DNA from: Spirochaetaceae bacterium UBA4077
Lineage (GTDB): Bacteria > Spirochaetota > Spirochaetia > Treponematales > Rectinemataceae
Assembly (NCBI GenBank): GCA_002383375.1
Contig: DFYR01000040.1
Location: 5,522-69,521 of the forward strand
Direction: 5' to 3'
Length of the DNA stretch: 64,000 bases
The notes below the pieces were generated by a model, which saw only the letters and a list, made by a program, of their open reading frames with translations, made no database searches and was not told the DNA's origin. How positions within the stretch are numbered: the first letter of the stretch is position 1; the number at the start of each line of letters is the position of its first letter. Both the position numbers and the translations under genes were made by a program. Shown here piece by piece: positions 39,856 through 57,922 of this stretch.

Positions 39856-40908
39856 TCAGCCCAGCCTCCGGCGAAGCCGATAGGCGATGTCCTGGACGCT
39901 CATTGCCGCTCCTGGGGTTAAGCCGATCGGCGCTTCTCGTGAATCCTTTTCATCATCGCTGTGCGGGTCATTATGATTTGGCGCGAAAAGCAGGCCTTCC
40001 AGGCTGACCACCGCACTCCTCAAGGTGGAGCAGAGCGAGAGCATGGGGTCTTCTTCGGGGCCGGGAAACAGAAGCCTGTCATCTATTTTCCCGGGAGCAT
40101 TGTCCCAGAATTCTTTGCTTGCGGGTATGGTGAATTTCGCCACGAGTCTGCGGTTGAAATCGAGTTCGTTCTTGTCCTCGTAATTATCGCTAATGTCTAC
40201 GGTGCCTGCCAACAGAGCATCCTGGAAATAGGGACGCCGGGCCAGGGAGGGGCAGACGGAGAGAAGCCGCACCGACACAATTTCCTCCCGGGAATCTATG
40301 GATATGCCTCCGGTCGGGAAAGGAATGGCGAGCACGTAAAGGTAGGCTCTCTCGGAGGCAGGCTCTGGCTGAAGTCCCTGATCTGGTTCTGCGGTCGTGT
40401 TCGTGGCTGACACGAAGCCGGTCTCTACAAGGCCAGGCGACGAGTAGCCGGGCGAGGAACTCCACTGGGCGAAAGAGCAGGCTGCCCTGAGGGACTGGCT
40501 CAAATCCAAAAGGGAGGTTTCGCAGACCTGGTAGTGCTGGAGAATGGACTGTTGAAGATAGCGCCGCTTACGAAGCTCGTCCCCTGCCCGCCTGTCGAGT
40601 TTTTTCGTTTCCTCTATTAGGATGGCTGAGAGCTCGTCGAGGAGGGTGAAGTCCCGCTCCACCCTGGCTTTGCTGAGGACGTTCCTTCTATAAAGGGATG
40701 GATAGAGACTGCTCGCACCTGCCTTGTTGAGAAAATCTCTGGCCTGTCCCCGAAAGACCAAAAGATTCTCCCGGTTGAGATAGGAAAGTTCGGCGACGAT
40801 GCGGACAAGATCATTATAGCTTTCAACGGGGAAAGGCTCTGCCTTGGCTGCCGAGTCTCCGAAATGGGCTTTAAGCCTGCCGTCCAGCTGTGGCGTTATT
40901 TCTCTCAT
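39856..40908 (-). CDS. FRG-domain protein (function unknown)
   Basis: NLLVFRGQARDF...LYPSLYRR and LQHYQVCETSLLDLSQSLRAACSFA resemble the conserved FRG-domain blocks. It has a Ser/Pro-rich linker and an acidic C-terminal tail. Confidence 0.65.
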   Translation of the reverse strand: MREITPQLDGRLKAHFGDSAAKAEPFPVESYNDLVRIVAELSYLNRENLLVFRGQARDFLNKAGASSLYPSLYRRNVLSKARVERDFTLLDELSAILIEETKKLDRRAGDELRKRRYLQQSILQHYQVCETSLLDLSQSLRAACSFAQWSSSPGYSSPGLVETGFVSATNTTAEPDQGLQPEPASERAYLYVLAIPFPTGGISIDSREEIVSVRLLSVCPSLARRPYFQDALLAGTVDISDNYEDKNELDFNRRLVAKFTIPASKEFWDNAPGKIDDRLLFPGPEEDPMLSLCSTLRSAVVSLEGLLFAPNHNDPHSDDEKDSREAPIGLTPGAAMSVQDIAYRLRRRLG

Positions 40909-41216
40909 GCATTCTTAGTACAATAGTAAGGGTTCCAAGACAATACTTCCCCCGATCGATGTCAGACTATAATAGAGATGTCCTCCGATCGAACTACATT
41001 TAAACGCTCCGGGCATACGTTTTCTCATCGAGATTCTCTTCTCCGGCGAAAACTGATGAAAATATTATCACTGGTGGCGATTTTGCAACCAATACTGCTA
41101 TCTGGCTGATAAGTTTTGTTCCAGTTTGACATTATTCGGCATTGCAGATAGAAGAATTCTTCGCGGTGCTTGGGGAATGCTTCCCCCTTTATGCAGTAAG
41201 CGCTGATTAGAATTAT

Positions 41217-41232
41217 TGGCACGGATCCTGCA
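41217..41232 (+). promoter_or_regulatory. sigma-54 (-24/-12) promoter candidate
   Basis: TGGCACG-GATC-CTGCA versus the consensus TGGCACG-N4-TTGCW. GG at 41218-41219 and GC at 41230-41231. A GAFTGA-containing activator is encoded at 53834-55732. Confidence 0.55.
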
Positions 41233-41244
41233 AATATATCGGTA

Positions 41245-42573
41245 ATGGACTCACCATGGTTTATCATTGCAGACGACTTCACCGGATCGGGTGATTCGGC
41301 TGTCCAGTTCAGAACCGCCGAACGCCCAGCCCGATTTCTTCTGGATCTAAGCCAGAAAAACCTTACATCACTCGAGCTGTCAGCCTATGTGGTGAACAGC
41401 GATTCCAGATTTTTAACCAAGCTTGAAGCCTATGAAAGAGTTCGCGGCATCGCGCAGGCGATAGGCCAGAGAGCCTCGGGGAGACTTTATAAGAAAATCG
41501 ATTCAACCCTAAGGGGTAATATCGCTGAGGAAGTGGCGGCGGTGATGGACGGGGCGGGATTCTCCCGGGCTCTTGTCTGTCCCGCGGCTCCGCGCAATGG
41601 CCGGACCGTTGTGGATGGCCTCTGCCTTGTCAACCAGAAACCGATCAACTCAGGCATTGTGGCCAGGGATCACTTTACCCCCGTTGACGACGCCTGCCTT
41701 GCTTCTCATTTTGAATCGAAATTTCCTGGCCTCATCGCTCCAATTTCATTAAAGGAACTACGCAAGGGCGCCAATGCTCTGGCTGAGACAGTGGAGCGCC
41801 TGAGCGCCCAAGGGAAAAAAATTTTCACCGCCGATGCGGAAAGCATCGAGGACTTAGCGCTTCTGGCCACCCTGGCTGAGCTTCCCGGCCTCCTGTGCGT
41901 GGGTTCCTCCGGCCTGGCCGAGGCACTGGCCAACCACAAGGGCGCTGGGCGGGCAGAAACTTCGCCGCAGGGCATCCAGAAGGTGCCGACGGAAAAGGCT
42001 GTCTTCTTTGTAGGCTCTGTCACTCCCACGAGTGCAGCCCAGTGTGCCTTTCTGGCCGCATCGGGCAGTGTGCAGCGAATCGTCGTCGACGGCAGGAGCG
42101 CCGCCGACGAGCCTGCAAAGGAGATGGCTCGAATCCTCGCGGAAGCGGAAGCGCTGCCCGATGCGGCCCTCCTTTTCCATACCAGTTCGGTAAAAAAAGG
42201 CGTTTCGGCTGAACATGCCCGCCTGATGGGAACGCGGATATCCCAGTTCATGGGCGAGCTGGCCTTGGAAGTAGCCCGGCGAAGGTCGGTGGACTTTCTT
42301 TTTGCCATGGGCGGCGATACCGCGGCCCGAATCGTTTCCAGCCTGGGCGCTGACTATATCGATTTTACCGACGAGATCCTCCCGGGGCTCCCCTATGGCA
42401 TCTGCCGGTCCAGCGCCCTCGGGGCAGATTTGAAGTTTGCCTGCAAGTCCGGCGGCTTCGGGGCAATGGACGCCTTGGTGCAGGTTTTGGACAGAGTGAC
42501 GGGCATACCCTTCCAGGCTAAAGCGGTCCTTGAGGAGCGCTCGCCTGCTTTAATCAAGGAGAAAAACTCATGA
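41245..42573 (+). CDS. DUF1537-family four-carbon acid-sugar kinase
   Basis: N-terminal FIIADDFTGSGDSAVQF and a two-domain length of about 440 aa, typical of OtnK/DtnK-type kinases. Confidence 0.85.
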   Translation: MDSPWFIIADDFTGSGDSAVQFRTAERPARFLLDLSQKNLTSLELSAYVVNSDSRFLTKLEAYERVRGIAQAIGQRASGRLYKKIDSTLRGNIAEEVAAVMDGAGFSRALVCPAAPRNGRTVVDGLCLVNQKPINSGIVARDHFTPVDDACLASHFESKFPGLIAPISLKELRKGANALAETVERLSAQGKKIFTADAESIEDLALLATLAELPGLLCVGSSGLAEALANHKGAGRAETSPQGIQKVPTEKAVFFVGSVTPTSAAQCAFLAASGSVQRIVVDGRSAADEPAKEMARILAEAEALPDAALLFHTSSVKKGVSAEHARLMGTRISQFMGELALEVARRRSVDFLFAMGGDTAARIVSSLGADYIDFTDEILPGLPYGICRSSALGADLKFACKSGGFGAMDALVQVLDRVTGIPFQAKAVLEERSPALIKEKNS

Positions 42574-43727
42574 TTCCATTTTCCATTGCATCGCCCTCTC
42601 GGCTGGAGTTCGGACCGGGCAAGCTCGCTCTGGTTCCTTCCATTGTCAAGACTCTTACTCCATCGGGACTTGTCCTGGTATTGAGCGACAAGGGGGTTTC
42701 GCAGACCGGTACGCCTTCCAAGGTGGTCGAAGCCCTTGGGAGCGTGGGGTATACGGTATCCTTGGTGGATTCCGTGCCTCCCGAGCCTTCTATCCACGAC
42801 CTGGACAGGGTGGCGGCCGGCCTGAAGGGTAGCGCGGCGGCCATAGTGGCCATAGGCGGCGGCTCGGTGATGGATGCAGCCAAGATCCTGGCCGTGCTGG
42901 CCGGTAAGGGCTGGAGTACCGCCGAGCTGGCCGAACGGGGCGTTCCCGGAAGGGGTATCCCTACGGTGATGATTCCCACCACCGCGGGTACCGGTTCCGA
43001 GTCGACGCCCAACGCCATCGTCCTCTTCCCCGAAAAAAACCTCAAAGTGGGCATCGTGAGTCCCTATTTCATGCCCGACAGGGTAGTGCTGGATCCGGAG
43101 CTGATCCTGGGGCTTCCGCCTAAGCTCACCGCCTCCACCGGCGTGGACGCATTCTGTCATCTGCTGGAGTGCTTTATCTCGAAAAAGGCCAATCCCATGA
43201 GCGACATGATGGCCCGGGAAGGTATGCGACTCCTTTTGCCCGCTCTCCCCCTGGCCTATAAAAACGGCTCTGACATAGAAGCACGCTCGGCTACGCTTCT
43301 GGCGGCATATTACGGCGGCGCCTGCATCGCCTCATCGGGAACGACGGCCATCCACGCCCTTTCCTACCCTCTGGGCGGCACGTATAGGGTGCCCCACGGC
43401 GTATCCAACGCCGCCCTCCTGGTGCCGGTCATGAGCTATCAAAAGAAGAAAATAGCTCCCCGGTTGGCCGAGGCGGCCAGGGCTATCGGGCTGGTTGGTG
43501 CCGGTGGAGGATCAGGCGCGGATGAAGAGGCCGATCTCCTCCTACAGAGTCTGGACAGCCTGGTAAAGGAATTGAAGATTCCCACAAGCCTGAAGGATCT
43601 GGGAGTCCCCGACGGCGCCCTGGCTTCCCTCACCGAGGCGGCTTACGGCGTACGCAGGCTTTTGGACAACAACCCGGTGGACTTAAGCCGGGAGGATATT
43701 CGGACAATTTACGAGCTGGTGAAGTGA
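42570..43727 (+). CDS. iron-containing alcohol dehydrogenase
   Basis: GGGSVMDAAK, the metal-His blocks HALSYPLGG and VPHG, and about 385 aa. ATGA overlap with the kinase gene. Confidence 0.9.
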   Translation: MIPFSIASPSRLEFGPGKLALVPSIVKTLTPSGLVLVLSDKGVSQTGTPSKVVEALGSVGYTVSLVDSVPPEPSIHDLDRVAAGLKGSAAAIVAIGGGSVMDAAKILAVLAGKGWSTAELAERGVPGRGIPTVMIPTTAGTGSESTPNAIVLFPEKNLKVGIVSPYFMPDRVVLDPELILGLPPKLTASTGVDAFCHLLECFISKKANPMSDMMAREGMRLLLPALPLAYKNGSDIEARSATLLAAYYGGACIASSGTTAIHALSYPLGGTYRVPHGVSNAALLVPVMSYQKKKIAPRLAEAARAIGLVGAGGGSGADEEADLLLQSLDSLVKELKIPTSLKDLGVPDGALASLTEAAYGVRRLLDNNPVDLSREDIRTIYELVK

Positions 43728-43737
43728 GGAAGCCGAA

Positions 43738-44823
43738 ATGAGCGCGAACCTTGACCGGAGCCTCAGACCTCTGGTGGGGGTGACCATGGGAGATCCCGCG
43801 GGCATCGGTCCCGAGGTGATCGCCATGGCATTGAAGCGGGAAGATGTACGTGCTGCCGGAGAGTTTGTCGTTTACGGTTCCCCCGAAGCCATGGAGCGGG
43901 CTGCCGCGACTGTGGGGCTGGCTGCTCCCGTCAATGGGGCTGCCGATGTCGAACATTGCGTGTTTGGCGCCAACTTGATCAACGTTGTGCGATGCGGTGA
44001 GCTTCCGCTGGCCGGGTATGAGTTGGGCAAGGTGTCGGCCGCCTGCGGAGCCCTGGCTTTCGAGTCGGTGCGCAGAGCCATCGAGGACGCTCTCGCAGGG
44101 AAGATCCACGCTACCGCCACCGCTCCCCTCAACAAGGAAGCCCTGGCCCTGGCGGGCATCAAGTTCCCCGGCCATACGGAGATCTACGCCCATTTCACGG
44201 GCTCCAGCGAGTACGCCATGCTCCTCATGGAGGGCAACCTTCGGGTAGCCCATGTATCCACCCACGTTTCGCTGGCCGATGCGATAAAAGCCGTTACCAA
44301 GCCAAGGGTGGAGAGTGTCATACGCCTGGTTCACGAAGCCTTGGCCGAGATGGGTATTTCAAAACCGCGCATCGCGGTGGCGGGCTTGAATCCCCATGCC
44401 GGGGAGAACGGTCTTTTCGGAAGAGAGGACATCGAGCATATCGTGCCTGCCGTAAAGTCTACGGTCGCGTTGGGCGCTCTCGGACCATTTCCTGCGGACT
44501 CGGTGTTCTCCAGGGCCGCTGGCGGTGAATTCGACGCGGTAATAGCCATGTACCACGACCAGGGACACATTGCCCTCAAGATGGTGGGATTCCGATACTG
44601 CGAATGCGCGCCCGACGCCCCCAGCATTTCGGGGATAAACGTGACCCTGGGATCTTCGGTGATCCGCTGCTCGGTGGATCACGGCACTGCTTTCGACAGG
44701 GCGGGCAAGGGCACGGCGGATCCGGGCTCCATGGCCACGGCAATGATGACGGCGGCGGAGATGGCCGCCGGCAAGATAAGGCGAGAACGCGGAGACAAGG
44801 GCCAAGCGTCCCGCAAGGAGTGA
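43738..44823 (+). CDS. PdxA-family NAD-dependent (decarboxylating) dehydrogenase, paralogue 1
   Basis: GDPAGIGPE, GHTEI, GLNPHAGENG, MYHDQGHI, SVDHGTAF. Confidence 0.85.
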   Translation: MSANLDRSLRPLVGVTMGDPAGIGPEVIAMALKREDVRAAGEFVVYGSPEAMERAAATVGLAAPVNGAADVEHCVFGANLINVVRCGELPLAGYELGKVSAACGALAFESVRRAIEDALAGKIHATATAPLNKEALALAGIKFPGHTEIYAHFTGSSEYAMLLMEGNLRVAHVSTHVSLADAIKAVTKPRVESVIRLVHEALAEMGISKPRIAVAGLNPHAGENGLFGREDIEHIVPAVKSTVALGALGPFPADSVFSRAAGGEFDAVIAMYHDQGHIALKMVGFRYCECAPDAPSISGINVTLGSSVIRCSVDHGTAFDRAGKGTADPGSMATAMMTAAEMAAGKIRRERGDKGQASRKE

Positions 44824-44827
44824 GAAT

Positions 44828-45895
44828 ATGGACAACAAACTACCTATAATCGGCATCTCCATGGGGGATCCTGCGGGCATAGGCCCCGAGATAGCCGCCA
44901 AGGCCCTGGCCAATCCCGAAACCTACAAAAAGTGCAGGCCACTGATCACCGGCGACGCCTCGGCCATGGAGCAGGCGGTGAGAATCGCCAAGGTGAATTT
45001 GAAGGTAAACCCGATTGCCAAGCCCTCCCAGGCGAAGTTCGAATTCGGGACCCTGGACGTGATCGACCTGAAGGATGTCGATGTCGCCCAGCTTCAGCAC
45101 GGCAAGGTTTCGGCCATGGCGGGAAAAGCCGCTTTCGACGCGGTTAAAAAAGTCATCGAACTGGCCATGGCCGATGAGGTGGACGCTACCGTGACTGGTC
45201 CTCTCAACAAGGAAGCGCTCAACCTCGCTGGTTATCACTACACAGGCCACACGGAAATCTATGCGGATTTCACCAAGACCAAGGATTACACCATGATGCT
45301 GGCCGAGGACAAGCTGCGCGTAGTGCACGTATCCACCCACGTCTCCTTGCGTCAAGCTTGCGACAACGTGAAGAAGGAACGGGTTTACGCGGTCATCAAG
45401 CTGGCGTACGACACGATGCGCGATTTTGGTTTGGAGAATCCTAGGATCGGCGTCGCGGGACTGAACCCCCACGCCTCCGACGGCGGACTTTTCGGCTGCG
45501 AAGAAGCGGAAGAAATCGCCCCGGCCATCGCCAAGGCCAGGGCCGAGGGCATGACCGTGGACGGTCCCGTGCCCCCGGACACGCTTTATTCCAAAGCCTT
45601 GGGCGGCCAGTACGACATCGTCGTGGCCATGTACCACGACCAGGGCCACATCCCCCTCAAGGTCGTGGGCTTTACCTGGAACGACGCGGAAAAACGCTGG
45701 AATTCCGTGAGCGGGGTGAACATCACCCTAGGGCTGCCCATCATCCGCACTTCCGTGGATCACGGAACCGCCTTCGGAAAGGCGGGCAAGGGAACGGCCA
45801 CCGAGGAAAGCCTCATCAACGCCATCGACTACGCGGTCCAGTTCGCCAGGCAGCGATTGGCCAAGAAAGCGGCCGGAAGGAGCGAAAAACAATGA
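44828..45895 (+). CDS. PdxA-family NAD-dependent (decarboxylating) dehydrogenase, paralogue 2
   Basis: GDPAGIGPE, GHTEI, GLNPHASDGG, MYHDQGHI, SVDHGTAF. It starts 4 nt after paralogue 1. Confidence 0.85.
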   Translation: MDNKLPIIGISMGDPAGIGPEIAAKALANPETYKKCRPLITGDASAMEQAVRIAKVNLKVNPIAKPSQAKFEFGTLDVIDLKDVDVAQLQHGKVSAMAGKAAFDAVKKVIELAMADEVDATVTGPLNKEALNLAGYHYTGHTEIYADFTKTKDYTMMLAEDKLRVVHVSTHVSLRQACDNVKKERVYAVIKLAYDTMRDFGLENPRIGVAGLNPHASDGGLFGCEEAEEIAPAIAKARAEGMTVDGPVPPDTLYSKALGGQYDIVVAMYHDQGHIPLKVVGFTWNDAEKRWNSVSGVNITLGLPIIRTSVDHGTAFGKAGKGTATEESLINAIDYAVQFARQRLAKKAAGRSEKQ

Positions 45896-46791
45896 AGAAA
45901 ATCACCACCTTTACCGCCCTGGTCACCGCCTTCAGGCCCGACGAGAGCGTGGATTTCGGCGCCATAGCCGCCCAGGCTAGGCGCCAGCTGGCTGCTGGCA
46001 ACGACCTTTTCATCTGCGGCACCAACGGCGACTTTTCCAGCCTCACCTTCGCCGAGCGGATGAAGGTGGTGGAGACCTGCGCCGCTGTTAAGGGCGAGGC
46101 CAGGCTCATCGCCAACGCGGGGTTTCCCTCCACCTACGAGACCATCCTCCTGGCCAAGGAGTACCAGCGCCTGGGCGTCGAGGCGGTGGCTGCCATAACG
46201 CCTTACTTTATCTCCTGTACCCAGGAAGGCCTGTACCGCCACTATGCGGGCATAGCCGACGCCATTTCGGTTCCCCTCTACATCTATGAGATCCCCGCCC
46301 GCACGGGCAATTCCATCGAGGTGGCCACCGTAGCCAGGCTGGCCAAGCACGGCAACGTGAAGGGCATAAAGGATTCCTCGGGCAAGACAGAGCGCCTGGA
46401 CGGCCTGGCCCAGGTTTGCGCCGAGAATCCTGGCTTTGAGCTCTACAACGGTACTGACTCCCTCATCCTCTACGGACTCCGCAAGGGTGCCGCAGGCTGC
46501 GTATCCGGTCTGGCCAACGTAGCCCCCGAATGGGTGCGTGCGATAGCGAAAGCCTTCGAGTCCGGGGACCAGGACGCCGCCGACGCCGCCCAGAAAAAAC
46601 TCAACGGGCTCAGGGAAAGGCTCTACGCCTTCGGCTATCCCCCCGCCATGGTCAAGCGGGCTCTCTATCTTATGGATCCCAGCGTGGGCAACAACAGGCT
46701 TCCCGCCCTGGTTCCCGACAAAACGATCGACGAGGGGCTGGCAGCCCTTCTGGATGATTTAGGTCTTAAACGCGCGGATGCGCGTTTGTAA
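45892..46791 (+). CDS. DapA/NanA-family class I (Schiff-base) lyase
   Basis: Catalytic Lys block GIKDSSG and Tyr block YEIPARTG. GTNG in place of the usual GTTGE. About 299 aa. Confidence 0.85.
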   Translation: MKKITTFTALVTAFRPDESVDFGAIAAQARRQLAAGNDLFICGTNGDFSSLTFAERMKVVETCAAVKGEARLIANAGFPSTYETILLAKEYQRLGVEAVAAITPYFISCTQEGLYRHYAGIADAISVPLYIYEIPARTGNSIEVATVARLAKHGNVKGIKDSSGKTERLDGLAQVCAENPGFELYNGTDSLILYGLRKGAAGCVSGLANVAPEWVRAIAKAFESGDQDAADAAQKKLNGLRERLYAFGYPPAMVKRALYLMDPSVGNNRLPALVPDKTIDEGLAALLDDLGLKRADARL

Positions 46792-46810
46792 ATGTATTGA
46801 GGAGGTTCAG

Positions 46811-48421
46811 ATGAAACGAACGATTCTTTTGGCAATGTGCGTCCTAGTGGCAGCAGGCACGGCCTTTGCGGCCAATCCCCTTCCGGCCAAGGATCAGGTG
46901 CTCAACATCGCACAACCCGAGCTGAGCCAGACCTGGTCGCCCTTCCTGGGCGGCGGACACGTGGCTCGCTGGCAGTCCCTCTGGTGGGCGGCCCCCATGT
47001 ACTTCGACAAGGAAGGCAAGCTCCAGCCCTACGTGCTCTCCAAGGCAGTGGCTGACTCCACCTTCAAGACATGGACCCTCACCATCGATCCCAAGGCCTG
47101 CTTCTCCGACGGCTCCCCCATCACCGCCGAGGACGTCAAGGGTTCCTGGGAGCTCTGCGCCGTTCCCAGCACCAAGCACGCCCGGGTGGATCTCTTCCTC
47201 TCCGGCGTCGTTGGCTACAACGAAGTGATCACCGGCAAGAGCAAGTTCATGTCGGGCATCGTCGTCAAGGACAAGAGCACCGTGGTCGTCACCCTGAGCG
47301 CCCCGGACCCGATCTTCAACCAGAAAATCGCCACGGCTATGATTCCCCCGGTCAAGATTTCCCAGGCCAGGGATGCCAATGGCGAGCAGAAGCAGGAATG
47401 GTGGCACCCCAAGAATAAGGTAGTGGTGTCCGGCCCCTTCATGCCCCAATCCATGGATCTCGACCAGGGCATCGTCGTCTTCGTGCCCAATCCCAAGTTC
47501 TTCGGACCCAAGCCCAAGCTCAGCAAAATCGTGGTAACCTCCGTGGTCGATCCGGCCGTCGCCACCCTCATGCTCCAGCAGGGCAAGATGGACGCCCACA
47601 CCGAGCTCATCACCCCGACGATCATCGAGGACCTAGGCGCCGATTTCGTGTCCGGGCCCGCCACCGCCAAAGGCCAGCACTTCTGGTTCGGCGTGGACAA
47701 GGCACCCATGGACGACATCAATGTCCGCAAGGCACTGGTCATGGCGATCAATCCGGCCGACCTGGCCAAGGCCGCCTTCCCCGACGGACCCTACCAGCTG
47801 GCTACTCAGATTCTCAATAAGGTAGCGGGCGTGGATCCGGCCTACGAGAACTACAAGTACGATCCAGAAGGCGCCAAGAAAGCCCTGGCCGCCTCCAAGT
47901 ACAAGGAAGCCAAGAATCTGCCCAAGATCATGTTCGTCGGCATCAGCACCCCCACCCACGAAGCCGCGGCCCAGTATATCGCCGAGCAGTGGAGGCAGGT
48001 CCTGGGAATCACCGCCGTCGAGATGAAGTCGGCCATCGATACCTACTCTGGCCCGGACCAGAAAAACATCCAGATCTGGCGCGACGATGTGGGCACCCGG
48101 GTTCCCGACGCCGTCTCCTACCTCGTTGGCTCCATCCATTCCTCCTCGGGCAACGCCAAGAAGTGCCTGGGCGGCTGGAAGAACGCCGAAGTGGACAGGC
48201 TCCTGGAGCTGGCCAGCACCAAGGCCGTGGACAACCCCGACCGCATCAAGCTCGCTCAGCAGGCCCAGAAAATTTTCCGCGACCAGTACCTCTACATTCC
48301 CTACTACTATGACATAATGTCCAAGTGGGCCATGCCCTGGGTTATGGGCATGGAGAAGAACGACGACTGGCAGGTAATCGAGCCTTGGAATATCTACATC
48401 ACCGACGCGAAGAAGAAATAA
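46811..48421 (+). CDS. ABC transporter substrate-binding protein, family 5
   Basis: Signal peptide MKRTILLAMCVLVAAGTAFA. GGAGG lies 5 nt before the ATG at 46811. Confidence 0.9.
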   Translation: MKRTILLAMCVLVAAGTAFAANPLPAKDQVLNIAQPELSQTWSPFLGGGHVARWQSLWWAAPMYFDKEGKLQPYVLSKAVADSTFKTWTLTIDPKACFSDGSPITAEDVKGSWELCAVPSTKHARVDLFLSGVVGYNEVITGKSKFMSGIVVKDKSTVVVTLSAPDPIFNQKIATAMIPPVKISQARDANGEQKQEWWHPKNKVVVSGPFMPQSMDLDQGIVVFVPNPKFFGPKPKLSKIVVTSVVDPAVATLMLQQGKMDAHTELITPTIIEDLGADFVSGPATAKGQHFWFGVDKAPMDDINVRKALVMAINPADLAKAAFPDGPYQLATQILNKVAGVDPAYENYKYDPEGAKKALAASKYKEAKNLPKIMFVGISTPTHEAAAQYIAEQWRQVLGITAVEMKSAIDTYSGPDQKNIQIWRDDVGTRVPDAVSYLVGSIHSSSGNAKKCLGGWKNAEVDRLLELASTKAVDNPDRIKLAQQAQKIFRDQYLYIPYYYDIMSKWAMPWVMGMEKNDDWQVIEPWNIYITDAKKK

Positions 48422-48440
48422 GGCGCGGCGGAAGCTTTTA

Positions 48441-48479
48441 GGCGGCGTCGGGACTCGTGGCGAGAGTCCCGACGCCGCC
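48441..48479 (+). terminator. perfect 16-bp intercistronic stem-loop after the SBP gene
   Basis: GGCGGCGTCGGGACTC (48441-48456), loop GTGGCGA, GAGTCCCGACGCCGCC (48464-48479). There is no U-tract, so it is more likely an attenuating or stabilising hairpin than a full terminator. Confidence 0.55.
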
Positions 48480-48598
48480 CGGGCTTGACCTTGCTCGTTG
48501 CAGCGGGCGACTGCGCATGGCTCTTACTGCCAGGCGCGGCCGCTCGCGGATTTTCCCGGCGGTTCCTCCTGACGCCGGCGGGATGAATAGGAGTGCCT

Positions 48599-49555
48599 AT
48601 GGGTCGTTATGTATTGAATAGATTATTGAGATGGATACCCTCCGTCTTGTTTATCCTCCTGATCGTCTACGCCCTGGTGTTTTTCGGAGCCGGCGATCCC
48701 ATCAAGCTGATTTTCCTTCAGGCGCCCGGCGACGTGGCCTACGACCCGGTGCGCATCGAAGCTATCAGGGAGGCTTCGGGCTTGAACCGCCCCTTCCTGG
48801 TCCAGTTCAGTGACTATGTGATCCATATCCTTAAAGGCGATTTCGGCAACTCCCTGGTATCGGGCCGCTCGGTGAACGAAATGATCAAGGCCGCGGTACC
48901 CGTGACTTTCTCGCTAGGTTTGTCGGCTATAGCCATCATCGCGGTGATCGGCACGATCCTGGGCGCTATAGCGGCCCTCAACCAAAATCGATGGATCGAC
49001 AACCTCATCGTAGGCTTCGCCCAGTTTACCTGGGGCATTCCTGTCTTCGTGGCCGGACCGCTGATCATCGTATTCCTCGTTTTAGTCTTAAAAATGGACG
49101 TACCCTTTGGCTGGGGTGGTCTTTTCAGCCCCAAGGTGATCGTTCCCCTCATCGTCATGGGCCTCAATCCCATGGCTATCATCATACGCCAGGCCAGGGC
49201 CGGCGTTCTGGAAGTCCTGAGCGAGGACTATATCCGGACAGCCCGTTCCAAGGGCTTGCCTACTAAAACCCTGGTGTTCAGGCACATCCTGCGTCCCGTC
49301 CTCACCCCCGTGGTGAGCCAGACCGGCCTTTTGGTCATTGGCGCGCTGAACAATTCCATTCTGATCGAGAAAGTATTCGGTCTTCCGGGCTTGGGTCGCT
49401 TGACCGAAAACGCGATTACCCGCTCGGACTATCCGATAATCCTCGCAATTGTGTTGATTTTTTCATTCGTGGTAATGACCTCCAATCTCCTGGTGGACAT
49501 TTCCTATCCTCTCCTCGATCCAAGGGCGGCGAGCAAAAAGAAAGGAGAAGACTGA
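48599..49555 (+). CDS. ABC transporter permease (DppB/OppB type)
   Basis: DYIRTARSKGLPTKTLVFRHILRPVLTP block. AGGAG lies 5 nt before the ATG at 48599. Confidence 0.9.
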   Translation: MGRYVLNRLLRWIPSVLFILLIVYALVFFGAGDPIKLIFLQAPGDVAYDPVRIEAIREASGLNRPFLVQFSDYVIHILKGDFGNSLVSGRSVNEMIKAAVPVTFSLGLSAIAIIAVIGTILGAIAALNQNRWIDNLIVGFAQFTWGIPVFVAGPLIIVFLVLVLKMDVPFGWGGLFSPKVIVPLIVMGLNPMAIIIRQARAGVLEVLSEDYIRTARSKGLPTKTLVFRHILRPVLTPVVSQTGLLVIGALNNSILIEKVFGLPGLGRLTENAITRSDYPIILAIVLIFSFVVMTSNLLVDISYPLLDPRAASKKKGED

Positions 49556-50507
49556 TGGAGAGCGAAGCAAAGAAGACCGCCGTGGTCGAAGAAAAGCAGT
49601 ACAATCTGTTCAAGGACGCCATGAAGCGACTGGCGGCCAACAAGTTAGCCATGGTTGGGCTGATCGTCGTCTCCCTGGTCATCCTGATAGCGATCATAGG
49701 GCCAATGATCACTCCTTACGATTTCCTGAGCCAGGACCTCAACTACAGGAACAAGGCCCCCTCGGCCCAGCACTGGTTCGGCACCGACGACCTGGGCAGG
49801 GACGTTTTTAGCCGGGTCATCTACGGAGCCCGCACCGCGGTGATCGTGGCCATATCGGTCACTGTCCTGAGCTACCTCATCGGCATAGTCCTCGGCTCGC
49901 TGGCCGGCTACCTGGGAGGCAAGGTGGACGCCTTTGTGGTCTGGCTCATCGACGTCTTCATGTCGATTCCCTCCCTCCTTTTGGTGATTGTCGTCAACGT
50001 ATCGGTCAAACCTGTGCTGGTGAACTGGATGGACGCCAAGTTCCTGGAAACCCAGAACCAGTTTTTCCGGAACACGACCTGGGTGGATTTCGCCATAGTC
50101 TTCGGCTCCCTGGCCTTCATAAAGTGGCCCAAGGCGGCGAGGATAATTCGAGGACAGATCCTCTCCATAAAGAACAAGAACTATGTCGTCGCGGCTAAGG
50201 CCCTGGGCGTTCCAACGTCGAAAATCATACGACGCTACATAATTCCCAACTCGATCGGACCCTTCATCGTCTCCATAAGCTCCACCCTGGGCGAGGCCAT
50301 GGTGCTGGAGTCCTCCTTCAGCTTTCTGGGGGTAGGGGTTAAGCCGCCCATTCCCAGCTGGGGCAACATGATTTCCGACGGTCTGCGGGTCTGGCAGGTC
50401 TATCCCCATATACTCGCCGCCCCGGCCTTGGTGCTGGCGATCGTCACCATTTCGTTCAGTTTCTTAGGCGACGGGCTGAACGATGCGTTGAATCCGAGGC
50501 AGTGGAA

Positions 50508-50511
<4 letters not shown>
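49555..50511 (+). CDS. ABC transporter permease (DppC/OppC type)
   Basis: NYVVAAKALGVPTSKIIRRYIIPN block. Its start abuts the previous stop. Confidence 0.9.
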
Positions 50512-51496
<985 letters not shown>

Positions 51497-51500
<4 letters not shown>

Positions 51501-52489
51501 ACGCAGAGGTTAAACAGCCCAAAGTCCTGATGAAAGTTGAAAACCTGGTCAAGCATTTTCCCGTGCGCCTGGGCGCCTACGGCGAAAAAAAGGCCGTGGT
51601 GCACGCCATAGACGATATTTCCTTCGATATTTACCGGGGGGAAACGCTCGGCCTGGTGGGGGAATCGGGTTGCGGAAAATCCACCACGGGGTTCGCACTC
51701 CTCCAGCTCTACAAGCCCAGCTCAGGTAAAATAACTTTCGACGGGCTCGAGCTTACGGCGATGGAAGAAAAAGCCCTGCGCCCGGTGCGCAAGAGGGCGC
51801 AGATAATCTTTCAGGACCCCTATTCCACGCTCAATCCCAGGATGACCATACTGGACGCCATGGCCGAGCCCATTAGGGTGCACAACCTCCTGCCCGAAAA
51901 GGAAATCCCCGCAAGAATCGCCCAACTTCTCGACGATGTGGGGCTTAATTTCAGCTTTGCGAACCGCTACCCCCACGAGTTCTCGGGCGGCCAACGCCAG
52001 AGAATCTGCATAGCGCGAGCCTTGGCCAGCAATCCCGAATTCATCGTCTGCGACGAGCCCATCTCGGCGCTCGACGTTTCCATCCAGGCCCAGATTATCA
52101 ACCTGATGATGGATCTACAGGAAAAGTACAAGCTCACCTATCTCTTCATCGCCCACGATCTGGCGGTTGTGCGGCATATCAGCGACAGGGTGGTAGTGAT
52201 GTATCTGGGCAAAATCATGGAGATCGCCGATAAGAAAGAACTCTTTGACAATCCCAAGCATCCCTACACCAAGGCACTCCTGGCCGCGGTGCCCGAGGCT
52301 GATCCCGACCACGAGCGGAACAAGTCCAGGGTCATCCTGACCGGGGACGTGTCCAACGCTATCGACCCGCCTTCGGGCTGCAGGTTCCATCCCCGCTGCC
52401 AGTACGCCAAGGATGCGTGCAAGAAGGCGCAAGGCCCGCAGCTGATTAAGGTAGCTCCAGGGCATTTATCGGCCTGCCCCTATTTTTAG
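51497..52489 (+). CDS. ABC transporter ATP-binding protein (OppF type)
   Basis: GESGCGKST, FSGGQRQR, FIVCDEP. ATGA overlap at 51497-51500. Confidence 0.9.
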
Positions 52490-52503
52490 ACGTGGAGGAG
52501 ACC

Positions 52504-53691
52504 ATGGCGTCCACCGCCTTGAAATTCGAAGAATTGCCCATACCCGCGCCGAACGTGCAGAACCACGCGGCCAATCTCTGCGAGCTTTCCAATGGAGACC
52601 TGCTCTGTGTCTGGTTTTCAGGCACCCAGGAGGGAATGTCAGACATATCGGTCTATATGTCCAGGCTGCCGACAGGCGGTAGGGCTTGGTCAGCCCCGGT
52701 GAGGCTCTCCGACGACCACGACCGCTCCGAGCAGAATCCGGTTCTCTTTCCGGCTCCCGACGGAAGGCTCTGGCTCATGTGGACTAGCCAGCGGGCGGGC
52801 AACCAGGACACCGCCGTTGTGATGCACCGCATTTCCTCAGATATGGGCTATACCTGGACAAATCCATCAGTGCTTATCGCCAGGCCCGGCAGTTTCGTCC
52901 GACAGCCGGTGATCGTCAACGAGGCCGGGGAATGGCTTCTGCCCCTCTTCCGCTGCAGGCAGATCCCCGGACAGAAATGGGTGGGCGACGCCGATTACAG
53001 CGCCGTGGCGCTATCCGGCGATGCCGGCGCGACCTGGGAGATACGGCCTCTGCCCGGTAGCCTGGGCTGCGTGCACATGAATATCGTGCCCATGGACGAC
53101 GGCTCGATGCTGGCATTCTTTCGCAGCCGCTGGGCAGACTTTATCTACCGCACTCGTTCCGTGGACGGTGGCCATACCTGGGAGCAGCCCAAACCGACAA
53201 CGCTGCCCAATAACAATGCCTCGGTCCAATGCGTGAGGCTCCGGGATGGGAGGCTGGCCATGGTTTTCAACCGTTCCAGCGCGGTAGCGGCAACCCAGCG
53301 ACGCGAGTCGCTCTACGACGAGATCGAGGACGACGAGGCAGTCGAGCCTGACGGCGCCCCAGCCCTGGCTAAAGAAGCGGCAAGCCAGGCTGCCGCTGGC
53401 GGCTTCGTCCCCACCGGCCACGAAGGCGCTCCTCCCCCTGACGAGCGCAAGGCCTTCTGGGGCGCTCCGCGAGCTCCCCTATGCCTGGCTTTTTCCTCGG
53501 ACGGGGGCTTAAGCTGGCCGGAGAGCCTGGATCTGGAGGTGGGGGATGGCTTCTGCCTCACCAATAACTCCAAAGACTCGATGAACAGGGAATACTCCTA
53601 CCCTAGCATAATCCAGAGCAGAGACGGCCGGATCCATGTGGCCTATACCTATTTCCGACAGCGTATAAAATATCTACGATCCAACCTGTAA
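52504..53691 (+). CDS. BNR/Asp-box beta-propeller protein, sialidase-like (no signal peptide)
   Basis: Four Asp-box-like repeats: SSDMGYTW, SGDAGATW, SVDGGHTW, SSDGGLSW. The N-terminus MASTALKFEELPIP is not a signal peptide. GGAGGAG lies before the ATG at 52504. Confidence 0.75.
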   Translation: MASTALKFEELPIPAPNVQNHAANLCELSNGDLLCVWFSGTQEGMSDISVYMSRLPTGGRAWSAPVRLSDDHDRSEQNPVLFPAPDGRLWLMWTSQRAGNQDTAVVMHRISSDMGYTWTNPSVLIARPGSFVRQPVIVNEAGEWLLPLFRCRQIPGQKWVGDADYSAVALSGDAGATWEIRPLPGSLGCVHMNIVPMDDGSMLAFFRSRWADFIYRTRSVDGGHTWEQPKPTTLPNNNASVQCVRLRDGRLAMVFNRSSAVAATQRRESLYDEIEDDEAVEPDGAPALAKEAASQAAAGGFVPTGHEGAPPPDERKAFWGAPRAPLCLAFSSDGGLSWPESLDLEVGDGFCLTNNSKDSMNREYSYPSIIQSRDGRIHVAYTYFRQRIKYLRSNL

Positions 53692-53833
53692 TGCCTGATG
53701 GAACGTAAGATCCCAGGAGGATAACCGGGCTTCCCAATAGCTTTTCTTGACCATGACAGGGGTATCTGAGCGGAATCCTACACTAAGGATCCTAAAAAGG
53801 GAAAAACCAGGGTATACTGGTTCCAGGAAACCT

Positions 53834-55732
53834 ATGATAGTTTTCATCGCGCCCTACCTGAAACTTAAACAAATCGCCGATTCTCTGGCGGATCACTATG
53901 CCGAACCTATGCGCAGCGTGGTGGGCGATCTGGGCGCTGGGCTTGCCCTGGCCAGGGAGGCTTTAGACGAGGATGCAATCCTGGTCAGCCGGGGCGGCAC
54001 GGCCAAGCTTATACGCGAAAGCCTGGGCGTCGATGTGATCGAGATAGGGGTTTCCTATCTGGACCTCATGCGCATCCTCAAGCCCTACATGGGAAGCCGC
54101 AAGCCTATCGCGGTGGCTGGATTTCGTGCCCTCATCCATTACGCCAAGAACGTCTGCGAGGCCTTGGGGATAAAGGCTGAGTATTTGCCGGTAGACGATG
54201 AGGCTGAAATGACCAGCCGCATCGAGCAGGTGCGAGGAATGAACGTGGCCTGCCTGGTAGGCGATATGGTGGCGGTGCGCAGCGCCAAGGATCTTGGAAT
54301 TCCCCTGGCACTGATCGAGTCCGGGCCCGATGCGGTTGCAGAGGCGTTGGACAAGGCAGCCATGGTATCCAGAAGCCTTATGGCCCGCCGGGCTGGGGAA
54401 CTGAGACTGGGAGCCGTTCTTAACACCGTGCGGGAGGGCATTGTAGCGGTGGACCGATCAGGGCTTATCACCCACATCAACAGCACGGCGAAGGAACTGT
54501 TGGGTCCGCAGGCTGTGGTGGGCGTGTCTGCTGAAACCGTCCTGCCGGGCAAGTACATCGACCGAGCTATGACAGAACGTAAGGAAGCCTTTGGCAGACT
54601 TCTGGAGATTGGGGGCCATCGTACCGCCCTGAACGTGACGCCCATCGTCGCTCTGGATTCGGTGGAAGGTGCGGTCATTGTCCTGCAGAAAGTGGCCCAG
54701 ATTCAGGACATAGAGAAAAAGGTGCGCCGCCAGCTGAGTGCTGGAGAACTGGTGGCCAAGTATCACTTCGAGGACATGGCTTCCGAGTCCCCTGCCATGT
54801 GCGCCTGCCTGAGCGTGGCCAGGCAGTATGCCCGGAGCGCCAGCGCCATTCTCATCTATGGAGAAACGGGGACGGGCAAGGAAAGATTGGCCCAGAGCAT
54901 TCACAACGAGAGTTCCGTCAGGGACGGGCCCTTTGTGGCAATCAATTGCGGCGCCTTGCCCCCCAGTCTTCTTGAAAGCGAGCTCTTCGGTTACGTGGAG
55001 GGAGCCTTCACGGGAGCGGGCAGGGGCGGCAAGATGGGCCTTTTCGAATTGGCCCACGGCGGCACAATTTTTCTGGATGAGATCAACGAGTTGGATGTTC
55101 AGCTCCAAGGCAAATTGCTGAGGGTAATTCAGGAGCGAGAGGTGATGCGTGTCGGCGGGGTAAAGGTCATTCCCGTGAGCTTCCGCCTGATCGCCGCATC
55201 CAACGTGCCCCTCCAGGAAGAAATGGAAAAAGGTAAGATCCGCCGGGACCTTTTCTACAGGCTCAAGGTGCTGGACATCCGGCTGCCGCCTTTGAGGGAG
55301 AGACCCGAGGATATCGAGCAGCTCTTCGCTTCCTTCACCAGGGAATGCGCCCTGAGAGACGGGGACGCTGAGCCTCCTCCTCCTCCGGAGTGCTTTCTCC
55401 AGGCGCTGAAGGCCCACCAGTGGCCGGGCAACGTTCGGGAGCTGGAGAACGTTGCGGAGAAGTGGACCGTGCTGCGCAGGCTTTTAGATGCTGATGCGGC
55501 GGCAGCCCTCACCCTTGAATCCTTCGGCGGCCAGGAGGCCTGCGGCTCAGGTTCGCGGCTCGTTGCCGAGGCTGGGGACTGGTGCGCGGGAAGCCTGGAG
55601 GCCATCACGCGCCGGGCGGCCCTGGCGGTGCTGGACGAAGAAGGGGGCAACATATCCAGGGCCGCCCGGCGCCTGGGCATAGACCGCCAGACCTTGCGAA
55701 AGCACATCAAGGACTCGACGCCTGAGTTTTAA
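53834..55732 (+). CDS. sigma-54-dependent transcriptional activator with PrpR-type N-terminal domain, PAS, AAA+ and Fis HTH
   Basis: MIVFIAPY...GGTAKLIRE resembles a PrpR_N sensor. Walker A GETGTGKE, GAFTGA loop, C-terminal HTH NISRAARRLGIDRQTLRKHI. The start is uncertain (53747, 53753 or 53834). Confidence 0.85.
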   Translation: MIVFIAPYLKLKQIADSLADHYAEPMRSVVGDLGAGLALAREALDEDAILVSRGGTAKLIRESLGVDVIEIGVSYLDLMRILKPYMGSRKPIAVAGFRALIHYAKNVCEALGIKAEYLPVDDEAEMTSRIEQVRGMNVACLVGDMVAVRSAKDLGIPLALIESGPDAVAEALDKAAMVSRSLMARRAGELRLGAVLNTVREGIVAVDRSGLITHINSTAKELLGPQAVVGVSAETVLPGKYIDRAMTERKEAFGRLLEIGGHRTALNVTPIVALDSVEGAVIVLQKVAQIQDIEKKVRRQLSAGELVAKYHFEDMASESPAMCACLSVARQYARSASAILIYGETGTGKERLAQSIHNESSVRDGPFVAINCGALPPSLLESELFGYVEGAFTGAGRGGKMGLFELAHGGTIFLDEINELDVQLQGKLLRVIQEREVMRVGGVKVIPVSFRLIAASNVPLQEEMEKGKIRRDLFYRLKVLDIRLPPLRERPEDIEQLFASFTRECALRDGDAEPPPPPECFLQALKAHQWPGNVRELENVAEKWTVLRRLLDADAAAALTLESFGGQEACGSGSRLVAEAGDWCAGSLEAITRRAALAVLDEEGGNISRAARRLGIDRQTLRKHIKDSTPEF

Positions 55733-55780
55733 CTGCCTTAAACAGCTGTCCGGCGCCTAAAACCCGAGTGGCGTACTCTT

Positions 55781-56230
55781 TCAGTTTTTAAGCCACTCTG
55801 TGCCCGAACGGTCTGGGCGTGACTTTCGGATTTCCATCCACTCGTTCTGCCGTGTAAGGGTGCCGAAGCCCACCTTCCTATAGAGAGGATGGGCGTCCTT
55901 GGTGATCAGGAACCACTGGTAGACCTGTTTCATGGAAGGATGATCAAGCATGAAGCGCATCATTTCGGTGGCGACGCCCCTGCCACGGTAGTCCTTGTCC
56001 ACGAATACGTCGATCACGTAGGCGAAACGGATCTTGTCTGAAATGGCGCGGGCGCAACCTATCTGGATGCCCTTTTCATTGAAGGCTCCCACCTGGATGG
56101 CAGAGTTCTTGGCGCTGATGCGCAATTCCTCAGCACCGATGCCTGGGCACCAATGGGCTTGGGACAACATGGCCGACATGCGGTCGAAATCCATTTCTTC
56201 AAGGCGGTCCGAGTAGCGAATCTTTTCCAT
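55781..56230 (-). CDS. GNAT-family N-acetyltransferase
   Basis: Acetyl-CoA site YRGRGVATEMM, at about 149 aa. Confidence 0.85.
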   Translation of the reverse strand: MEKIRYSDRLEEMDFDRMSAMLSQAHWCPGIGAEELRISAKNSAIQVGAFNEKGIQIGCARAISDKIRFAYVIDVFVDKDYRGRGVATEMMRFMLDHPSMKQVYQWFLITKDAHPLYRKVGFGTLTRQNEWMEIRKSRPDRSGTEWLKN

Positions 56231-56273
56231 TGCCTACCTCCTGAGAATTGCTTCGTAGTGCTGGAGCCAGGGC

Positions 56274-56612
56274 TTACCGGCTTTCTTTGTTTGCCTGGAT
56301 TAGGCGGAGAACCGAAAGACAGAGGGATACTGCCGCGGCGATGTAGACGTTGACCGCTGCCGCAGCCTTGTAGCCGTAGAGGAAGGGCGAAAGCCCTAAT
56401 GATACGCTGAATACCAAATAAAGAATTCGGGATGCCCTGGAGTCTGGAACCGCGAGGCTCCAGAAGGCGATGAGGAAAAGAATGACTCCGGTAAAGCGGA
56501 CAAAGGCCTGGCCGTTGGAAATGGGGAAAAAGAAGGTGGATACGAAAATCCAGAGCGTGATGAGCACCTTGAGCCAATCCAGCGGGTTGTTAAAATTTTT
56601 GCGCTCGCTCAT
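56274..56612 (-). CDS. small four-TM membrane protein (possibly SPW-repeat-like)
   Basis: 112 aa with four hydrophobic helices and repeated P-containing helix ends (FFFPISNG, GLSPFLYGY). The family call is tentative. Confidence 0.5.
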   Translation of the reverse strand: MSERKNFNNPLDWLKVLITLWIFVSTFFFPISNGQAFVRFTGVILFLIAFWSLAVPDSRASRILYLVFSVSLGLSPFLYGYKAAAAVNVYIAAAVSLCLSVLRLIQANKESR

Positions 56613-56697
56613 GTCGCTTTACCTCCGGGAACATGTTTTTAAAAACGGTGGAAGCTGTTTCCCTCGGCTCCCGCCGGCTGGGATATGGTACTAAAAT

Positions 56698-57285: not shown

Positions 57286-57294
57286 GTTGTGAGC

Positions 57295-57912: not shown

Positions 57913-57922
57913 ACCTTCTTCT

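Follow-up and report, generated by a model that had tools for sequence, protein, structure and literature searches.

D-Threonate catabolism, as described in Salmonella and Escherichia coli, runs through two adjacent and co-oriented genes, one for the DUF1537-family kinase DtnK and one for the dehydrogenase PdxA2, and ends in dihydroxyacetone phosphate (DHAP); we know of no obvious natural source for the substrate of this pair. Two other described systems come close to the locus reported here. Nan clusters combine the lyase NanA, the NanQ/YhcH anomerase, a SiaT-type SSF carrier and a sialidase, while the glucarate/galactarate route cleaves, reduces and phosphorylates with GarL, the tartronate-semialdehyde reductase GarR and the glycerate kinase GarK, a logic shared with the HpaI step of the homoprotocatechuate pathway. 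Here we analyse a locus at positions 41217-55732 (+ strand) of a 64-kb stretch of DNA from Spirochaetaceae bacterium UBA4077 (assembly GCA_002383375.1, contig DFYR01000040.1, a metagenome contig in ENA), the whole of which we call the window. The locus is built from known families: a Nan-like or Gar-like front end, a Dtn back end and, as the signature enzyme, an uncharacterised sialidase-fold protein of the BNR family.

The initial annotation of the window held that this gene set matches neither the Dtn nor the Nan loci, and our comparison upholds one half of that claim. The locus shares with Nan clusters a lyase of the DHDPS/NanA family and a sialidase-fold protein, and many of its versions in other genomes add a YhcH protein and an SSF carrier; unlike Nan clusters, however, it has no NanK, NanE or NagAB, its lyase is DapA-like at the position that would meet a distal carboxylate, and its BNR protein is cytoplasmic. 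The Dtn system, in contrast, does not seem foreign to it, as the kinase and PdxA pair appears to be a D-threonate (DtnK/PdxA2) back end whose E. coli orthologues pass the D-threonate equivalog models. The window pair differs from the described pathway in having two PdxA paralogues, in scoring below the equivalog cut-offs and in its setting, a longer operon that also encodes the aldolase, the reductase, the importer and the sialidase-fold protein; this setting implies that the cell forms its own D-threonate from a bigger molecule. The glucarate/galactarate logic recurs, but the fragment would have four carbons instead of three, a DUF1537 kinase and a decarboxylating PdxA would stand in for glycerate kinase, and the window aldolase is of class I (Schiff-base), GarL/HpaI-type enzymes replacing it in actinomycete and some alphaproteobacterial versions. 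As a whole, a sigma-54 operon carrying out the catabolic steps proposed below is the best explanation of the locus, and we hold it to be somewhat probable.

Organisation and control of the operon

The mechanical list of open reading frames (ORFs) in the window gives 12 co-directional frames on the + strand between 41245 and 55732, 11 operon genes and an activator gene. The operon opens with a DUF1537-family acid-sugar kinase, predicted to act on D-threonate (tetronate) (41245..42573; Pfam SBD_N and NBD_C; best NCBIfam model DtnK), and an iron-containing alcohol dehydrogenase (Fe-ADH), the predicted reductase of a four-carbon aldehyde-acid (42570..43727; Pfam/NCBIfam). Two PdxA paralogues with 46% identity follow, an accessory copy a (43738..44823) and a core copy b (44828..45895), the latter predicted from Pfam/NCBIfam and orthology to be a decarboxylating 4-phospho-tetronate dehydrogenase, and then a class I pyruvate aldolase of the DHDPS/NanA family that keeps the Schiff-base Lys, the Tyr and an Arg (45892..46791; Pfam DHDPS). 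An ATP-binding cassette (ABC) importer is encoded by genes for a periplasmic family-5 solute-binding protein (SBP) with a Sec signal peptide (46811..48421; SBP_bac_5), two permeases (48599..49555 and, of OppC_N type, 49555..50511; both BPD_transp_1) and two ATPases (50508..51500 and 51497..52489; both ABC_tran with an oligo_HPY C-terminus). The signature gene, encoding a cytoplasmic six-bladed BNR_2 propeller of sialidase fold (52504..53691; Pfam BNR_2, AlphaFold2 model), closes the operon, and a sigma-54 enhancer-binding protein of domain order PrpR_N, PAS, AAA+ and Fis helix-turn-helix (HTH) comes after it (53834..55732; Pfam PrpR_N, PAS, Sigma54_activat, HTH_8).

Neighbouring genes overlap by an ATGA at 42570/42573, 45892/45895, 50508/50511 and 51497/51500 and by 1 nt at 49555, and other junctions are gaps of 10, 4, 19 and 14 nt. 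We chose gene starts by Shine-Dalgarno sequence, signal peptide or public gene call. The SBP start at 46811 has a GAGGAGG Shine-Dalgarno and yields the Sec signal peptide MKRTILLAMCVLVAAGTAFA; permease 1 starts at the in-frame ATG that follows GGAG (48599), and ATPase 1 at the ATG that yields the 4-nt overlap (50508). The BNR start at 52504 has a GGAGGAG Shine-Dalgarno and matches a 395-aa public gene call, whereas the activator probably starts at 53834 (632-aa public gene call) although its longest ORF begins at 53747. Scans of the operon for internal sigma-70 promoters and terminators returned matches at or below shuffle expectation, and an Rfam scan of 40500-56500 gave no match.

The initial annotation had described eleven packed co-directional genes of these families (DUF1537, Fe-ADH, two PdxA, DHDPS, SBP_bac_5, two permeases, two ATPases and a BNR_2 propeller lacking a signal peptide), a near-consensus sigma-54 promoter ahead of them, one long spacer holding a perfect 16-bp hairpin, and a downstream enhancer-binding protein with a PrpR-type N-domain, PAS, GETGTGKE, GAFTGA and a Fis HTH. 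All of this holds, with small corrections to gene starts: Pfam recovers every family, no signal peptide is found on the BNR protein, and the promoter proves unique in the window. That promoter, the -24/-12 element TGGCACGGATCCTGCA (41217..41232, + strand), has one mismatch to TGGCAC-N5-TTGCA, with GG at 41218-19 and GC at 41230-31 in correct spacing, and a motif scan of both strands returned no second site with one mismatch or none. Transcription is predicted to start at about 41243, 2 nt ahead of the kinase ATG (41245); the -12 GC lies 13-14 nt before this ATG, and without a Shine-Dalgarno sequence the transcript would be nearly leaderless. No alternative in-frame kinase start was found ahead of the conserved IIADDFTG motif. 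Some 90-170 nt upstream of the promoter lies an imperfect inverted repeat (41050..41127; 21-nt arms, 71% complementary), which we regard, speculatively, as a candidate activator binding site.

The activator carries GETGTGKE at residue 372 and GAFTGA at residue 419 and scores 212.8 bits on Sigma54_activat. It shares its domain order, a PrpR_N sensor, an AAA+ domain with GAFTGA and a Fis HTH, with PrpR of propionate catabolism, whose effector is the carboxylic acid 2-methylcitrate. It is not PrpR itself, because it scores 339 bits on the PrpR equivalog model against a cut-off of 499, and it controls an unrelated operon. Activators with PrpR_N go with the gene set in the relatives of the window, Treponema, Lucifera and Paenibacillus; other lineages, namely enterobacteria and Burkholderia, have DeoR-type repressors instead. 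In Lucifera butyrica, where the activator is 48% identical to that of the window, TGGCATTAATCTTGCA lies about 55 nt upstream of the kinase start and appears to be an independent instance of sigma-54 control. A search upstream of the Paenibacillus version found no sigma-54 motif, and its activator has a degenerate AAA+ domain.

The only long spacer (48422-48598) contains a perfect 16-bp stem-loop (48441..48479, + strand; arms 48441-48456 and 48464-48479; fold z = -4.3 against shuffles) directly 3' of the SBP gene and without a T-tract. A strong hairpin of different sequence occupies the same position in three other loci (L087, L004 and L088), making four divergent loci with that of the window. 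It is probably an intercistronic element that stabilises mRNA or acts as an attenuator, and its placement would fit a common arrangement in which a stem-loop raises SBP mRNA relative to that of the membrane components. From its sequence, then, the locus reads as one real, translationally coupled operon under sigma-54 control.

A recurring gene set around the BNR gene

BNR homologues number in the thousands, with 53-61% identity across Pseudomonadota, Bacillota, Actinomycetota and Spirochaetota; the nearest species-representative genome encodes one at 61% identity to the window protein. We counted the functions encoded within 10 kb of the BNR gene by tblastn at 62 species-representative loci with full 10-kb flanks, a method adopted since our own ORF calling, which was unreliable in high-GC loci, recovered only 61 of 85 BNR genes. 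PdxA is the most tightly linked partner (59 of 62 loci). Next come a pyruvate aldolase (56 loci; DHDPS-type at 37, HpcH-type at 19), an aldehyde reductase (55 loci; Fe-ADH at 41, aldo-keto reductase at 15) and a DUF1537 kinase (54 loci), and all four functions occur together in 46; an unbiased all-against-all clustering of neighbours puts the same families on top. This neighbourhood check around BNR homologues shows the same functional set recurring across phyla, and the combination, hereafter the module, does not appear to be accidental.

The window order of kinase, Fe-ADH, PdxA, DHDPS, five ABC genes and BNR recurs in Sphaerochaeta and two metagenome relatives, the latter two with a PrpR_N activator at the end; one of these three also has a second PdxA. 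Elsewhere the order varies. The Paenibacillus version comprises a PrpR_N activator, DHDPS, Fe-ADH, kinase, PdxA, an SSF carrier, BNR, a YhcH-family protein and a short-chain dehydrogenase/reductase (SDR), and in Serratia, Pectobacterium and E. coli a DeoR regulator accompanies divergent kinase-PdxA and Fe-ADH-DHDPS-carrier-BNR-YhcH units. Of 5426 complete E. coli genomes, 1048 (~19%) carry the module, flanked by glnS and nagE; in strain MS 69-1 (L006, NZ_CP146675.1 3605390-3614369) it forms a nine-gene island of DeoR, PdxA2, dtnK, Fe-ADH, DHDPS-family, TerC-family, sialidase-family, YhcH-family and SLC13 permease genes. A cluster on S. meliloti pSymB was confirmed by tblastn.

At least 589 species-representative genomes and 317 plasmids carry the module, among them those of Pectobacterium, Pantoea, Ralstonia solanacearum, Rhizobium, Sinorhizobium, Agrobacterium, Azospirillum, Burkholderia, Paenibacillus and anaerobes of digesters and plant biomass. 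Soil and gut bacteria are among its carriers, which are mainly plant-associated, and this ecology fits a compound of the plant wall.

Some versions hold further genes that the window lacks. An SDR of about 236 aa is encoded directly downstream of the BNR gene in 43 of the 62 loci, as judged by tblastn, and is absent from the window and the other ABC-type versions. In the closest relatives, extra genes stand between BNR and activator (L087, 11134-16057; L088, 11318-16354): both loci have a D-2-hydroxyacid dehydrogenase and a TctCBA tricarboxylate transporter, to which L087 adds a second DHDPS-family gene and L088 an RraA-like aldolase.

A probable D-threonate back end

The best model for the window kinase is the DtnK equivalog (NF047819), on which it scores 207.5 bits against a cut-off of 450; on OtnK it scores 149. 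Both PdxA copies hold the PdxA domain and exceed the generic TIGR00557 pdxA cut-off (290), and on the model of D-threonate-4-phosphate dehydrogenase (NF002891, cut-off 583) copy b reaches 345 and copy a 300. The pair in the E. coli island passes both D-threonate models, its kinase with 532.5 bits (cut-off 450) and its PdxA with 681 (cut-off 583). In actinomycetes (Nonomuraea and others) the DUF1537 kinase and PdxA are fused in one protein of 822 aa (range about 780-870 aa), as at L077 (50-2518, - strand) and at L057, L025, L022 and other actinomycete loci; the kinase is therefore tied to PdxA.

Copy b of the window is orthologous to the single PdxA of L087 (79% identity) and of L004 (61%) and to the b copy of L088 (89%). 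Copy a has an orthologue at the same position in L088 (70%) and is evolving faster (70% against 89% for copy b). The tandem genes look like old paralogues, at 46% identity, and not like a recent duplication.

Aldolase, reductase and importer

The lyase matches Pfam DHDPS with 199.7 bits and, as the initial annotation noted, contains GIKDSSG and YEIPARTG. In alignments to solved DapA structures the Lys and Tyr of these motifs align with DapA K161 and Y133, and the Arg of YEIPARTG falls at the position of Arg138, which in DapA binds the carboxylate of aspartate semialdehyde, a four-carbon aldehyde-acid. Of 51 cluster-linked lyase homologues, 46 have Arg or Lys here, all of them together with a GTNGE/D motif, and we argue that the lyase would expect a substrate with a distal carboxylate. 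The lyase fits neither DapA nor NanA: as DapA proper, the lyase falls below the cut-off of TIGR00674 (188.8 bits against 206), has GTNGD/E instead of GTTGE and lies in a catabolic context, and as NanA it falls below both equivalog cut-offs (125.8 and 103.2 bits against 281 and 382).

In Nonomuraea and other actinomycetes an HpcH/HpaI class II aldolase, with GarL and HpaI as best NCBIfam models, takes the place of the DHDPS-type enzyme, and an aldo-keto reductase that of Fe-ADH; aldolases of GarL/HpaI type also occur in some alphaproteobacterial versions. GarL is the 2-dehydro-3-deoxyglucarate aldolase and HpaI the 4-hydroxy-2-oxoheptanedioate aldolase, and both cleave 2-keto-3-deoxy dicarboxylates. 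The replacements are non-homologous and stand beside the same BNR gene, which argues for a pathway that needs a pyruvate aldolase acting on a 2-keto-3-deoxy (di)carboxylate, and an aldehyde reduction.

The importer has the five-component Opp/Dpp architecture with a family-5 SBP, but peptide specificity finds no support in the SBP, which scores at most 83 bits on the OppA, DppA, MppA, NikA and GsiB models (cut-offs 393-1098). A sequence search of the PDB returned remote Opp, Mpp, Dpp, Nik and AccA relatives only, with no clue to the ligand. Other versions exchange the ABC system for SLC13/DASS carriers (E. coli), TctCBA (close relatives) or SSF carriers (28 of 62 loci), which appear to be of carboxylate or sialate types, and a YhcH/NanQ-like protein is often encoded after the BNR gene.

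A sialidase fold with partly non-canonical aligned residues

The BNR protein scores 221 bits on Pfam BNR_2, with four Asp-boxes (SxDxGxTW) visible in the alignment. Its AlphaFold2 model is a six-bladed propeller (mean predicted local distance difference test (pLDDT) score, 84.8) whose best Foldseek matches are GH33 sialidases at template-modelling (TM) scores of 0.65-0.69 and 12-16% identity. The six blades and the Asp-boxes are those of GH33 exo-sialidases, whereas the aligned catalytic residues are partly non-canonical. We read these residues from three weak local alignments of hidden Markov models (HMMs) to PDB entries, one of them shifted by one blade. In such weak HMM alignments the second Arg of the triad (NanB R557) aligns with the invariant R211, and the third (Micromonospora viridifaciens R342) with the invariant R327. 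The counterpart of the first Arg, that of the RIP motif, is Q81 in one blade register and Q23/N24/H25 in the other, and NanB E541, the Glu partner of the nucleophile, aligns with the invariant H195. The position of the nucleophilic Tyr (GYS motif) is, in the same kind of weak alignment, Tyr in 153 of 181 members and Phe in 26 of 181, including Phe354 of the window protein; an invariant E367/Y370 pair on the next strand could be the true equivalent of the nucleophile.

The earlier description of this protein as sialidase-like can therefore be kept for its modelled fold only, and glycoside hydrolysis does not follow from it. The family appears unusually conserved for an uncharacterised enzyme, 15 of 28 checked positions being invariant across 181 members.

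A second family of sialidase-like propellers is of interest for the substrate. The N-terminal domain of BT1020 in the rhamnogalacturonan II (RG-II) system of Bacteroides thetaiotaomicron, a sialidase-like GH143 enzyme, releases Dha, a seven-carbon analogue of sialic acid (PMC6811678, PMC13501991). The window protein resembles it in its beta-propeller and in a marginal match to PDB 5mqr (E = 0.031, 66 residues), but GH143 is described as five-bladed (PMC6811678), has a Tyr/Glu pair and serves extracytoplasmic polysaccharide degradation, whereas the BNR protein has six blades in its model, lacks a signal peptide for export from the cytoplasm and shows His where the Glu aligns. Our comparison with the BT1020 N-terminal propeller found no significant sequence relationship to GH143.

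The proposed pathway and its substrate

On sensing an organic acid, the adjacent PrpR_N-type activator would switch on the operon. The Opp-like ABC system would import an acidic 2-keto-3-deoxy sugar acid akin to sialic acid, either free or as a small conjugate, and the cytoplasmic sialidase-fold protein would free or pre-process the sugar acid. The DHDPS-family class I aldolase would then cleave a seven-carbon dicarboxylic acid between C3 and C4 to give pyruvate and 2,3-dihydroxy-4-oxobutanoate, and Fe-ADH would reduce this aldehyde to a tetronic acid, predicted to be D-threonate. Finally, the DUF1537 kinase would form the 4-phosphate, which PdxA-b would oxidise and decarboxylate to DHAP and CO2. 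The chemical steps are all drawn from family membership and gene context, and we likewise infer what the substrate is, in which order the steps run and what the BNR protein does. The general scheme, which extends the initial proposal of import of an acidic sugar or conjugate, intracellular cleavage, and lyase, oxidoreductase, kinase and decarboxylation steps, is supported by comparative genomics and we consider it probable.

Dha itself we put forward tentatively, as a candidate with less than an even chance of being the substrate. In a Fischer projection Dha has C4 left, C5 left and C6 right, so that cleavage and reduction leave, on counting anew from the carboxylate, C2 left and C3 right, which is D-threonate; we checked this derivation on the known cleavage of Kdo to D-arabinose and pyruvate. 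We know of no other natural compound whose aldol fragment reduces to D-threonate. In the literature searched, no paper joins 'threonate' and 'heptulosaric', and none came to light that describes a catabolic route for Dha.

The scheme is weakest in the role that it gives to the BNR protein. This protein may represent a new enzyme class on the sialidase fold, cytoplasmic, with His at the aligned Glu and without the first triad Arg, that carries out a non-classical reaction on a Dha conjugate, for example lyase, hydratase or ring-processing chemistry other than retaining sialidase hydrolysis; we consider this joint proposal rather doubtful.

Several observations weigh against the reading of the locus as a whole. 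The proposed substrate comes from chemical logic. The window kinase is about 29% identical to E. coli DtnK and scores 207 where the model demands 450, PdxA-b at 345 falls short of 583, and neither the second PdxA copy nor the SDR of 43 loci has a role in the scheme. The BNR protein poses a double difficulty: if free Dha is imported, an invariantly present protein is left with no evident task, and SSF and SLC13 carriers would be an unusual means of importing a Dha glycoside. In the weak alignments its site is non-canonical, with replacements at the first Arg of the triad and at the Glu that pairs with the Tyr. The 2-nt distance between transcription start and kinase ATG is unusual. Lastly, our full-text literature search found no substrate or pathway assigned to the gene set, but two 2016 studies (Zhang, PNAS; Thiaville, ACS Chem Biol) lie outside its coverage and may contain relevant neighbourhood analysis.

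The same pathway logic might serve a different 2-keto-3-deoxy acid sugar, such as a stereoisomeric heptulosaric or ulosonic acid, an ulosonic acid made by microbes or algae or a compound that arises when an aldaric acid is dehydrated, and the tetronate may then be D-erythronate or another hydroxy-acid. Nothing in our data identifies the substrate directly, and the window kinase and PdxA fall below the D-threonate cut-offs; the two PdxA paralogues kept in two lineages could reflect two stereoisomeric phospho-tetronates, and the accessory genes of the relatives (second DHDPS, 2-hydroxyacid dehydrogenase, RraA-like aldolase and TctCBA) hint at a wider range of acids. Yet Dha is the sole natural compound known to us that would give D-threonate, the orthologous E. 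coli pair passes the D-threonate models, and the plant-associated distribution fits a component of pectin. A substrate other than Dha within this scheme is thus a possible but unlikely alternative.

Alternative functions for the locus

If the locus instead scavenged sialic acid, KDN or Kdo in the manner of Nan clusters, one would expect genuine exo-sialidase or Kdo-hydrolase activity of the BNR protein and a lyase that acts as NanA or as a Kdo aldolase, and the kinase, PdxA and Fe-ADH would handle a side product. GH33 sialidases are indeed the best structural matches of the BNR model, many versions have the NanQ-like YhcH protein and an SSF carrier, and the lyase weakly matches the NanA model. 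Nevertheless, genes of NanK, NanE and NagA/NagB type are absent, and the ManNAc, mannose or arabinose released from Neu5Ac, KDN or Kdo would call for neither a DUF1537 kinase nor a PdxA, although PdxA accompanies 59 of 62 BNR genes. The lyase scores higher as DapA than as NanA and keeps the carboxylate-binding Arg of DapA, which NanA is not known to have; class II aldolases of GarL/HpaI type substitute for it in some lineages, and the canonical sialidase residues do not all align. On these grounds we reject a true Nan locus as improbable.

A plainer account would have a D-threonate/D-erythronate kinase and PdxA2 pair lying beside unrelated lyase, ADH, ABC and BNR genes. In its favour, DtnK and PdxA2 alone suffice for D-threonate catabolism, as Zhang and colleagues reportedly found in 2016. 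A chance neighbourhood of this kind, however, sits poorly with the translational coupling across all window genes, with the joint presence of four functions at 46 of 62 loci in several phyla and in varying order, and with the exchange of aldolase and reductase for non-homologous enzymes of the same function beside the same BNR gene; it is quite improbable, and a peptide importer with unrelated neighbours was among the readings we rejected.

A role in vitamin B6 synthesis, supplied by salvage (or detoxification) of 4-hydroxy-L-threonine or its peptide conjugates with the peptide-type ABC importer bringing in the conjugate, is very improbable and is likewise rejected: 4-hydroxythreonine and its phosphate can be substrates of DUF1537 kinases and PdxA2 (Thiaville 2016 as cited in PMC12928451, PMC9997740), both PdxA copies pass TIGR00557 and the importer is of the Opp/Dpp family, but this would account for two or three of the 11 genes and leave the conserved aldolase, reductase and BNR partners without a role, the importer is freely exchanged for SSF, SLC13 or Tct carriers, and PdxA2 is described as acting in organic-acid catabolism, not in synthesis of pyridoxal 5'-phosphate (PLP) (PMC9997740).

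Genes around the operon

Upstream, a beta-hydroxyacid dehydrogenase gene (38954-39817, + strand), whose best NCBIfam models include tartronate-semialdehyde reductase, 3-hydroxyisobutyrate dehydrogenase and L-threonate dehydrogenase, all below cut-off, encodes chemistry close to that of the proposed pathway but is separated from the operon by an FRG-domain gene (39856-40908, - strand). A 203-aa ORF (37435-38046, - strand) aligns to the PEP mutase/isocitrate lyase family over its C-terminal part alone (positions 95-239 of a 240-position profile) and may be a truncated gene or have a mis-called start. Beyond it lies a gene for a metallo-beta-lactamase and flavodoxin protein of flavodiiron type (36130-37347, + strand), which suggests that the source organism is an anaerobe.

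Directly 3' of the activator, a tight block on the - strand (55781-61373) encodes a GNAT acetyltransferase, a ThiF-family protein, two ORFs without Pfam matches, a PLD-like protein (PLDc_2) and two more ORFs without matches; it could be a defence-type or otherwise uncharacterised operon. A tRNA gene search of the window found none.

Discussion

This gene set has been seen before. A 2026 paper on E. coli BEN2908 reports a PdxA2/DUF1537 pair beside sialidase-like, dapA-like and adh genes, and the same set with an ABC transporter in S. meliloti; citing Thiaville 2016, it reads the pair as PLP-related (PMC12928451). The cluster has thus been noticed without a function, and in the literature searched we found no characterised pathway to which it is already tied, in agreement with the initial annotation.

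In the module, the D-threonate enzymes are directly preceded in the pathway by an importer, a sialidase-fold protein, an aldolase and a reductase, and so it makes a concrete, testable prediction of the real nutrient. It is found above all in pathogens and symbionts of plants and in gut E. coli, and its assignment would bear on cross-feeding on pectin fragments. Many genes now annotated as 'exo-alpha-sialidase', 'PdxA' or 'dihydrodipicolinate synthase' would gain a better description. If true, our reading would explain why bacteria carry a D-threonate kinase and PdxA2.

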